Source: a virus
Taxonomy: Duplodnaviria; Heunggongvirae; Uroviricota; Caudoviricetes
IMG/VR virus record: IMGVR_UViG_2541047826_000010
Direction: 5' to 3' (one strand)
DNA length: 34,194 bases
Below are positions 11,536 through 12,012 of the stretch, one piece after another. A program made the translations under genes and the position numbers. The notes beneath the pieces are model-generated. The model ran no database searches. It had not been told where the DNA came from and worked only from the letters and a program-made list of their open reading frames with translations. The number at the start of each line of letters is the position of its first letter. Within the stretch, counting starts at the first letter, position 1.

Positions 11536-12012
11536 TTAAGGATTATCCGGGGCGTTTTCCTGTTTGCCGTACTTCGGAGACGAACAACATTCTGTTGGCT
11601 GACCGGTGAGTTTACGTAACTCCTTCATGAGCAGCTCCTGATCGTAAACTGTCATCAGTGCCGCAATGGTGGCATGCAGTGCATCGGGCAGTATCCAGGG
11701 TTGCCGGCCCGTGGGGCATATAACATCCAGCAGCTCATTCGTCCGACAGATACGCTCCTCGCCGTATGACAACAGGCCCTGTCCCGTGTATTCCTCCAGC
11801 CTGATCACTGTGCCACCCCGTGGCTTCTGCCAGGTCGTCAGATCTTCGCCATTCATACGGCGCTCATTCTCCACGTCAGCAGCATCGACAATGACGCTGT
11901 TTCCGAGTTCCTGTTTCACCATCTCTTCTATCCGCGCCAGTACGTAACTTTTACCGCTGCCCACAGGACCGGACACAGTGACAGTGATGACCGGATTCAG
12001 TGTGTGCGTCAT
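11536..12012 (-). CDS. small P-loop NTPase (kinase-like), unknown function
   Basis: 158 aa; Walker A GPVGSGKS at residues 15-22 followed by hydrophobic-D (VIVDAAD); strong SD GAGGAG; opposite orientation to all neighbours. Confidence 0.55.
   Translation of the reverse strand: MTHTLNPVITVTVSGPVGSGKSYVLARIEEMVKQELGNSVIVDAADVENERRMNGEDLTTWQKPRGGTVIRLEEYTGQGLLSYGEERICRTNELLDVICPTGRQPWILPDALHATIAALMTVYDQELLMKELRKLTGQPTECCSSPKYGKQENAPDNP

Follow-up and report, generated by a model that had tools for sequence, protein, structure and literature searches.

This study examined a P-loop open reading frame (ORF) in a virus sequence of 34,194 nucleotides (IMG/VR record IMGVR_UViG_2541047826_000010; this whole stretch is hereafter the window), which is a BcepMu-like (Mu-like) transposable prophage of Escherichia coli. 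The results revealed that the ORF is a real coding sequence under purifying selection and a conserved backbone gene of BcepMu-type prophages, not the orphan described in the initial annotation. Its length of 158 amino acids is a deletion-derived short size, the usual form of the protein being 242-247 amino acids. We are highly confident of the identity, synteny, and deletion origin of the gene. The whole explanation proposed here (a backbone gene, a truncated allele, late expression, and a nucleotide switch or adaptor) is in our judgment evenly poised between right and wrong, an estimate that blends parts of differing strength. The minus-strand ORF, its N-terminal Walker A motif (GPVGSGKS), and its strong Shine-Dalgarno sequence, all noted in the initial annotation, were confirmed in the sequence. 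The features of the locus are as follows.

11536-12012, minus strand: P-loop ORF of 158 amino acids with an ATG start; deletion-shortened allele of phrog_3787, a protein of BcepMu-like prophages.
12021-12027, minus strand: Shine-Dalgarno sequence AGAGGAG, 8 nucleotides (nt) upstream of the ATG; AGGA is invariant in eight diverged upstream regions.
11947-11970, minus strand: Walker A motif GPVGSGKS (residues 15-22), read from the sequence.
11785-12012, minus strand: mini P-loop module (residues 1-76) comprising beta1, Walker A, alpha1, beta2, an ER loop, Trp, and beta3 ending in Glu74; the sole part common to remote relatives.
11791-11793, minus strand: codon of Glu74, a near-invariant acidic residue ending beta3; candidate Walker B or catalytic residue, its putative role being based on conservation.
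11605-11763, minus strand: helical module (residues ~84-136, …LPDALHATIAALMTVYDQELLMKELRKL), one of several shuffled C-terminal modules, delimited by predicted helices and by relatives.
11547-11552, minus strand: CCCCGG microhomology junction of a deletion of ~850 bp, located by the BLAST break and by alignment.
11500-11517, plus strand: intrinsic terminator (hairpin and T-run) of the convergent cargo operon (XRE153, p328, and p196).

The ORF matched phrog_3787, a PHROG annotated as function unknown, with E = 2.1e-107 and 359 bits. The match covered profile positions 1-157 of 242, indicating that the window allele is a truncated member of this family. The window protein was 92% identical to residues 1-157 of the 242-residue protein (XRL29432.1) of Escherichia phage PhiKM, genus Bcepmuvirus, the nearest deposited phage. 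Identity to phrog_3787 proteins was 82-97% over residues 1-152, and their loci resemble the window in the divergent position next to the holin gene, the upstream dyad, and the hexamers; compared with the long forms, the window copy lacks a C-terminal helical domain of ~90 residues. Of 5,426 complete E. coli genomes, 570 contained the gene by Megablast, in each case on a chromosome. A literature search on the protein accession found nothing.

The P-loop gene and the holin gene are divergent, and their start-to-start spacer was 130 bp in every related locus fetched, which included four allele classes defined by length (247/242, 182, 158, and 141 amino acids). The same 130-bp arrangement was also present in diverged Citrobacter-type phages, in which the holin is only ~65% identical; a genome scan with the closer module alignment identified at least one such locus, in Citrobacter. 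Position and orientation were conserved in every related prophage examined. The guanine-cytosine (GC) content of the P-loop gene was 54-55%, similar to that of the late backbone, versus 40-46% in the adjacent cargo, and this composition, together with synteny in all relatives, argues against a recently acquired moron; a moron was among the candidates of the initial annotation. The median pairwise ratio of nonsynonymous to synonymous substitution rates (dN/dS) was 0.27 among 20 distinct P-loop alleles, versus 0.10 for the holin.

The long forms extend beyond residue ~152 by a further helical region of ~90 residues, which is itself under purifying selection (ratio of nonsynonymous to synonymous polymorphisms, pN/pS, 0.23). 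In long-form loci, the gene order is P-loop247 (+), orf133 (-), orf71 (+), and Dam (+), and the convergent 133-residue ORF overlaps the 3' end of the P-loop gene by 25 nt. BLAST homology between the window and these loci ended at 11547/11548. The alignment revealed that the 158-residue alleles track the long form through …CAGGAACACAyCCCGG; past CCCGG, they correspond to the 3' end of orf71 (CCCCGGATAATCCyTAA) in another frame, giving …PDNP and a stop. The junction shows that ~850 bp were deleted across the CCCGG microhomology, with loss of orf133, most of orf71, and the ~90 C-terminal residues. This deletion joined codon ~155 to the out-of-frame tail of orf71, and a later cargo replacement set the low-GC, repressor-linked operon behind the short allele.

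A second 158-residue lineage (L006), 83% identical in protein sequence, has the same junction and retains Dam downstream. The window parts from this lineage at 11517, 19 nt past the stop codon, where the low-GC cargo and the terminator start, and the 141-residue class breaks at 11612. These breakpoints make the 3' end of the P-loop gene the edge of the hypervariable region of the phage. The window allele was found at ≥99% identity in about 108 E. coli genomes, and long-form C-terminal DNA was found in 499; about 98 E. coli genomes had the complete window cargo, in linkage with the 158-residue allele. The two short lineages differ by a dS of 0.32-0.35 with a dN/dS of 0.28-0.30, and both ORFs are intact; none of the 10 short alleles sampled had a frameshift or premature stop. 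The intact and diverged short lineages argue against simple decay without proving that the short form is functional.

We analyzed the relatives of the protein through an exhaustive profile search of 1.84 billion representatives, which identified 66 proteins at E ≤ 1e-3. Relatives beyond the close family had only residues 1-75 in common with the window protein. The remote relatives comprised mosaic proteins of 200-364 residues with shuffled helical modules and stand-alone proteins of 70-99 residues on long contigs, within prophages unrelated to that of the window. Pfam searches of the C-terminal parts of ten mosaic relatives revealed no domain. The helical module of the window protein (LPDALHATIAALMTVYDQELLMKELRKL), for which AlphaFold2 (AF2) predicted helices at residues 86-98, 110-122, and 125-136 with low confidence, forms the natural C-terminal end of the mosaic relatives P0034, P0036, and P0057. 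Stand-alone module genes occupied accessory-gene locations, mostly at the boundary of the late region: a Yersinia prophage has a 71-residue gene flanked by the lysis cassette and HNH/terminase, another lies between Lar/HNH and NinB/small terminase in an Acinetobacter prophage, and a third has CRISPR-Cas I-F and BrxR as neighbors in a Thalassolituus island. The mini P-loop module is an autonomous evolutionary unit that occurs alone (70-90 residues) or fused to shuffled tails in many phages.

The module was alignable across 25 diverse members, and Glu74 was invariant in that alignment. Among 110 distinct modules, conservation was 100% for the GK of Walker A, 97% for the following S/T, 92% for E50, 85% for W61, and 93% for E74, and the complete GxxxxGK[ST] pattern was intact in 105. 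The Walker A motif of the superfamily of P-loop nucleoside triphosphatases (NTPases) is present in the window protein, placed between a predicted strand (residues 8-14) and a predicted helix (residues 21-33); the module's secondary structure comes from AF2 models of low confidence. Beta3 (TVIRLEE) ends in Glu74, a candidate Walker B residue that would lie beside the P-loop. Asp43 (VIVDAAD) was also considered as Walker B and was dropped, not being conserved across the family. Three strands are predicted in the conserved unit of ~75 residues. A complete P-loop NTPase core is a three-layer alpha/beta structure with at least five parallel strands, and, to our knowledge, the module would be far smaller than any P-loop NTPase core that has been characterized.

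The initial annotation had pointed to a resemblance to small nucleotide or nucleoside kinases and had proposed profile and structure searches for a kinase family. These searches yielded no kinase model above its threshold and no fold match. The best Pfam match of the window protein was AAA_30 (17.9 bits versus a cut-off of 27); the other models matched below their cut-offs included KAP_NTPase (PF07693; 14.6 bits versus 20, residues 4-43 only), ABC_tran (PF00005; 13.6 bits versus 25, residues 4-49 only), and Zeta_toxin (PF06414; 12.6 bits versus 22.3, P-loop only). In NCBIfam, guanylate kinase scored 12.9 bits against a threshold of 263 and uridine kinase 12.5 against 180. Pfam Cytidylate_kin and dNK were matched by some family members only, at E ≥ 0.012 and over the P-loop only. 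All family-library matches were confined to the strand-P-loop-helix element (residues ~4-55) at E ≥ 0.003, and profile searches of the PDB likewise returned only the strand-P-loop-helix(-strand) element, from all P-loop classes alike. PADLOC-DB 2.0 gave only P-loop-level matches at E ≥ 0.007 (SngB and mad8) and none for the 247-residue form.

The window protein has no SGG-type/LSGGQ signature, Q-loop, hhhhDE Walker B, or H-loop of ABC proteins, and its conserved unit could not accommodate a kinase core complete with LID and nucleoside monophosphate (NMP)-binding domains. As far as the defining features can be read from the sequence, the protein lies outside the kinase, ABC, KAP, and zeta families, and it is not a metabolic kinase. 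The initial annotation had contrasted its view with a standard phage kinase in conserved synteny; the synteny was found and a confident kinase assignment was not. Its description of an accessory gene beside a variable cargo region, without an informative family assignment, still stands.

The automated names of this protein clash: "ABC transporter ATPase," "KAP family NTPase," and "P-loop NTPase fold protein," as well as the JGI names "Ni2+-binding GTPase," "uridine kinase," and "AAA+ ATPase." All of the automated names rest on the Walker A segment alone, and the RefSeq names are unsupported. The short allele (WP_000149906.1) is named "ABC transporter ATPase" by PGAP; the likely source is an alignment of its N-terminal part with the nucleotide-binding domain of ABCB1-type transporters, with which it has the Walker A, the helix, and a "G-x-V-x-(I)D" strand in common. 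That domain is three times the size of the domain in the P-loop protein and carries the signature motifs that are absent here.

We further analyzed the 130-bp spacer between the P-loop and holin genes. A consensus scan of the spacer found no sigma-70 promoter. An alignment of eight diverged spacers revealed four conserved blocks amid divergent sequence, namely both Shine-Dalgarno sequences; a central TTTAAAGCGCGTTAAGAG containing the dyad TTAACGCGCTTTAA; CAGCAT on the holin side, the reverse complement of which overlaps GATGCT; and GCAGGAT on the P-loop side. The elements of the spacer and their candidate regulator are as follows.

12075-12088, no strand: dyad TTAACGCGCTTTAA, conserved in all lineages; putative operator for the Mor-family late activator, common to both divergent promoters.
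12046-12051, minus strand: CAGGAT, a -10-like hexamer 23 nt from the dyad in an invariant alignment block; putative leftward promoter.
12112-12117, plus strand: GATGCT, a -10-like hexamer 23 nt from the dyad; predicted rightward late (lysis/head) promoter, aligned with two other dyad sites.
12143-12493, plus strand: holin (Pfam Holin_2-3, E = 1.5e-41; phrog_1528), first gene of the late lysis/structural operon and divergent neighbor of the P-loop gene.
1065-1454, minus strand: Mor-family transcription activator (Pfam Mor, E = 1.3e-43), last of the early genes and candidate regulator at the dyad.
12075-12117, 25459-25501, and 31810-31852, plus strand: three late-promoter sites with a common architecture.

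The full dyad was unique in the window at up to one mismatch; a relaxed search with three mismatches gave 16 matches versus 9.9 expected, which was not significant. The core TTAA-N6-TTAA occurred three times (12075, 25459, and 31810) versus 0.13 expected, and none of 100 shuffles reached three. All three sites are intergenic and each precedes a late block: lysis/head for the first, tail chaperone/tape measure for the second, and baseplate wedge for the third. The three sites align as cTTcTTAA-N4-CyTTTAA-tATC, with 23 nt and then GATGCT, CATACT, or AATACT. They probably constitute the late regulon of the activator encoded at 1065-1454, the sole Mor/C-family gene found in the window. The leftward distance from the dyad at 12075 to CAGGAT (12051 to 12046) is also exactly 23 nt, and the dyad was kept, with CAGRAT on one side and NATGCT on the other at 23 nt each, in 23 of 23 distinct upstream regions, including those of Citrobacter-type loci with differing spacer sequences. 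The preservation of this mirror-image spacing in all lineages points to a divergent pair of activator-dependent late promoters with one operator, which in turn predicts that the P-loop gene is a late gene.

In phage Mu, a Mor dimer binds a dyad centered at -43.5 that overlaps a poor -35 element (PMC4287176; see also bioRxiv 10.1101/2025.05.02.651988). If transcription starts 7 nt past the hexamer, the dyad in the window is centered at approximately -42.5. The features of Mu-type Mor/C-dependent promoters (a dyad, its spacing, a poor -35, a -10 element, and a Mor gene) appear to be present here. As in the Mu promoters Pm, Plys, PI, PP, and Pmom, a dyad operator near -43 lies over a poor -35 with a weak -10, a Mor-family activator ends the early operon, and one operator type is common to several late promoters. 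Unlike in Mu, one dyad appears to serve two divergent promoters with mirror-image 23-nt spacing, the operator is of the TTAAAG-N2-CTTTAA type, only one Mor/C-family gene is present, and the system is known from sequence alone. The initial annotation had suggested independent expression of the P-loop gene; the lack of a sigma-70 promoter in the spacer and the dyad held in common with the late lysis promoter suggest co-regulation instead. We lean slightly toward the P-loop gene being a late gene that is co-regulated with lysis by the Mor-family activator.

The terminator at 11500-11517 has a 7-bp stem with five G-C pairs, followed by TTCTGTT on the plus strand; on the minus-strand side, the hairpin is followed by an A-run. 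The hairpin, acting on the plus strand only, terminates the convergent operon (9382-11498) and not the P-loop gene. The terminator noted in the initial annotation is real for the convergent operon, but it does not end the P-loop transcript. With a unidirectional terminator, a leftward P-loop transcript would run on as antisense RNA through the p196/p328/XRE operon, and late leftward transcription could thereby interfere with this repressor-linked operon.

On the basis of these findings, we propose that the mini P-loop module would bind a nucleoside triphosphate (NTP) or another phosphate ligand through its P-loop, and that the variable helical modules would provide partner specificity. The module is too small for a complete NTPase core, which suggests that it probably acts as an oligomer in the role of a nucleotide-dependent switch or adaptor. 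A leftward transcript from the weak CAGGAT promoter, with a predicted start near 12039, would be produced late in the lytic cycle, and the gene would be co-induced with lysis and morphogenesis and not expressed from the prophage. The nucleotide-switch or adaptor mechanism itself is tentative, and we regard it as possible rather than probable. Designed minimal P-loop proteins (the Tawfik-laboratory "phosphate-loop" prototypes, PDB 6c2u, and the de novo ATPase PL2x4_2, PDB 9jix) are likewise very small beta-(P-loop)-alpha-beta units with a canonical Walker A. Both structures were among the top PDB sequence matches of the protein, 9jix being aligned over residues 8-73, although the matches were weak (E = 0.001-0.02). 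Designed P-loop polypeptides of 40-110 residues form oligomers that bind NTPs, polyphosphate, and single-stranded DNA or nucleic acids (bioRxiv 10.1101/2020.07.30.228619). The designed proteins are artificial, whereas the phage module is natural and has an additional conserved ER, Trp, and terminal Glu. A bolder proposal is that the module is a natural autonomous mini P-loop domain (~75 residues) that is oligomeric and binds and perhaps hydrolyzes NTPs or binds nucleic-acid phosphates; that phages use it alone (70-90 residues) or as an N-terminal engine on shuffled helical adaptors; and that BcepMu-like phages switch it on with the lysis genes from a bidirectional Mor-dependent promoter. In this full form, we consider the proposal distinctly unlikely.

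Several observations weigh against our explanation. The dN/dS of 0.27 is fairly relaxed, and the divergence of the short lineages could predate the deletion or reflect recombination, in which case the truncated allele may have lost its function. GKN replaces GK[ST] in 3 of the 110 modules (mosaic relatives P0036, P0058, and P0060), and the 182-residue alleles (L011/L012, 8001-8549), present on 22 contigs, have lost residues 51-124 in frame, including beta3 and Glu74 as well as the helical module of residues ~84-136. The GKN members and the alleles without Glu74 suggest that hydrolysis may not be essential. With shallow alignments as input, the AF2 models reached a predicted local distance difference test score (pLDDT) of 52 for the 247-residue form and 48 for the 158-residue form, and a Foldseek search of these models against the PDB gave no match below E = 0.4, with template modeling (TM) scores below 0.25. 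The leftward CAGGAT matches TATAAT at only three of six positions, and the leftward side has no "tATC" flank such as that found at the three rightward late promoters; given this weaker hexamer and missing flank, late expression of the P-loop gene stays a prediction. The search for a partner gene in homologous prophages, proposed in the initial annotation, revealed neighbors that differ among allele classes and no toxin-antitoxin-like partner.

The 158-residue allele might instead be a non-functional remnant, the 247-residue protein being the functional one; it would survive owing to the recency of the deletion and cargo swap and because its 5' end overlaps essential late-promoter DNA. The deletion did remove two genes and the ~90 selected C-terminal residues (pN/pS 0.23), long forms predominate (499 genomes versus about 108 with the window allele), and the window-type lineage is near-clonal (≥99% identical, its linked cargo found in about 98 genomes). 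Nevertheless, the same junction occurs with an intact ORF and a dN/dS of ~0.30 in the lineage with an 83% identical protein, an independent 141-residue short class exists, and the distant relatives P0034, P0036, and P0057 naturally finish after the same helical module. The promoter elements, moreover, lie outside the ORF and leave the conservation of the reading frame in all 10 sampled short alleles unexplained. On balance, we consider the remnant unlikely. Another explanation is a prophage-expressed moron or defense gene, active in lysogenic conversion or superinfection exclusion and constitutive in the lysogen, independently of the late cascade. Consistent with it are the location at the edge of a hypervariable cargo region, the mosaic and fast-shuffling C-terminus, the stand-alone homologues in classic moron slots (from lysis or nin genes to terminase), and the Thalassolituus homologue next to CRISPR-Cas I-F and BrxR. 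The 130-bp spacer, however, contains no sigma-70-type promoter, and its conserved elements mirror activator-dependent late promoters; PADLOC gave no match, the GC content is that of the backbone and not of the cargo, and the position is fixed in diverged phages, unlike that of typical morons. We consider such a gene very unlikely here.

A small nucleotide or nucleoside kinase, either metabolic or acting as a nucleotide-modifying anti-defense enzyme, would account for the N-terminal Walker A in a small protein, the sub-threshold P-loop matches to guanylate, uridine, and cytidylate kinases and dNK, and the conserved Glu-Arg after beta2. Because those matches fall far under the thresholds and span only ~25-50 residues, the conserved unit of ~75 residues has no LID or NMP-binding region, and the sequence beyond residue 76 is mosaic and helical, with stand-alone homologues doing without it, we regard a kinase as highly improbable. 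We find it scarcely credible that the protein is a zeta/PezT-like, toxin-type P-loop kinase or serves as NTPase in a toxin-antitoxin or abortive-infection pair. The weak Zeta_toxin match (12.6 bits) and the convergent 133-residue ORF that overlaps the 3' end by 25 nt in long-form loci suggested it, but the match is below the cut-off of 22.3 and confined to the P-loop, the neighbor genes vary among allele classes and leave no conserved partner, no small gene in the same orientation adjoins the window allele, and PADLOC gave no match. The variable neighbor genes of the relatives received no Pfam or PADLOC assignment. A Dam-linked operon was also considered by analogy with Mu com-mom, since the P-loop gene, orf71, and Dam lie on one strand in relatives; it was rejected, but only for the window, from which Dam, orf71, and orf133 are all absent.

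This P-loop gene, present in roughly a tenth of complete E. coli genomes, bears misleading database names. The phrog_3787 family was already known; the deletion origin, the delineation of the ~75-residue module, and the bidirectional Mor-type late-promoter model at the sequence level are new. The promoter architecture provides an initial sequence-level model of how late genes are controlled in this phage group. If the module is an autonomous nucleotide-binding domain, it bears on the minimum size of a functional P-loop unit; should the bolder proposal hold in full, it would be the natural equivalent of the designed P-loop prototypes and a phage effector of a new, late-expressed class. If it is an ordinary accessory protein, the value of the analysis lies mainly in annotation correction. 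In either case, an anonymous ORF has been turned into testable hypotheses.

Elsewhere in the window, the early operon lies on the minus strand and runs from a Ner-like helix-turn-helix (HTH) gene via DUF3102, transposase, MuB-like ATPase, Gam, and GemA to the Mor-family activator. All credible genes from 12143 to 33871 are on the plus strand and include lysis, terminase, portal, protease, sheath, tape measure, and baseplate genes. Apart from the P-loop ORF, no credible gene lies on the minus strand between about 11500 and the right end, as the initial annotation had observed for the right two-thirds. The cargo operon replaces the orf133/orf71/Dam/repressor set of related prophages. Its products p328 and p196 are unassigned; both contain long hydrophobic segments and probably reside in the membrane. 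The operon may represent immunity or exclusion cargo; a PADLOC search of it gave no match except to the HTH. The coordinates of these genes are as follows.

1-858, minus strand: host otsB-like trehalose-phosphatase gene (Pfam, E = 1.6e-56).
4077-4607, minus strand: Gam, early operon.
4907-6112, minus strand: MuB-like ATPase, early operon.
6084-7853, minus strand: transposase, early operon.
8782-9153, minus strand: Ner-like HTH, early operon.
9382-9843, plus strand: XRE-family HTH of 153 amino acids, divergent from the early operon; first gene of the cargo operon.
9382-11498, plus strand: low-GC cargo operon with XRE153, p328 (328 amino acids, phrog_10002), and p196 (196 amino acids, phrog_12025), ending at the 11500-11517 terminator.

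A near-consensus sigma-70 promoter (9379-9407, minus strand; TTGACA, 17 nt, CATAAT; 11 of 12 matches) is directed leftward to the Ner-like gene and the early operon. It overlaps the start of the divergent XRE gene and probably serves as early promoter and as target region of the repressor. The otsB-like gene abuts the Mor end of the prophage, which places the left prophage/host junction within about 900-1060. In a related locus (L009, 10558-11106), an additional Mor-family gene of 182 amino acids lies in the variable region that separates Dam/repressor from the early operon. An identical 158-residue allele was found within a degraded prophage copy in E. coli 510016 (L002; NZ_CP025851.1, ~800.4-806.5 kb), in which IS1A breaks the cargo at the equivalent of window position 11231 and IS100 disrupts the gp27-like gene (DUF3486) that follows the lysis cassette.

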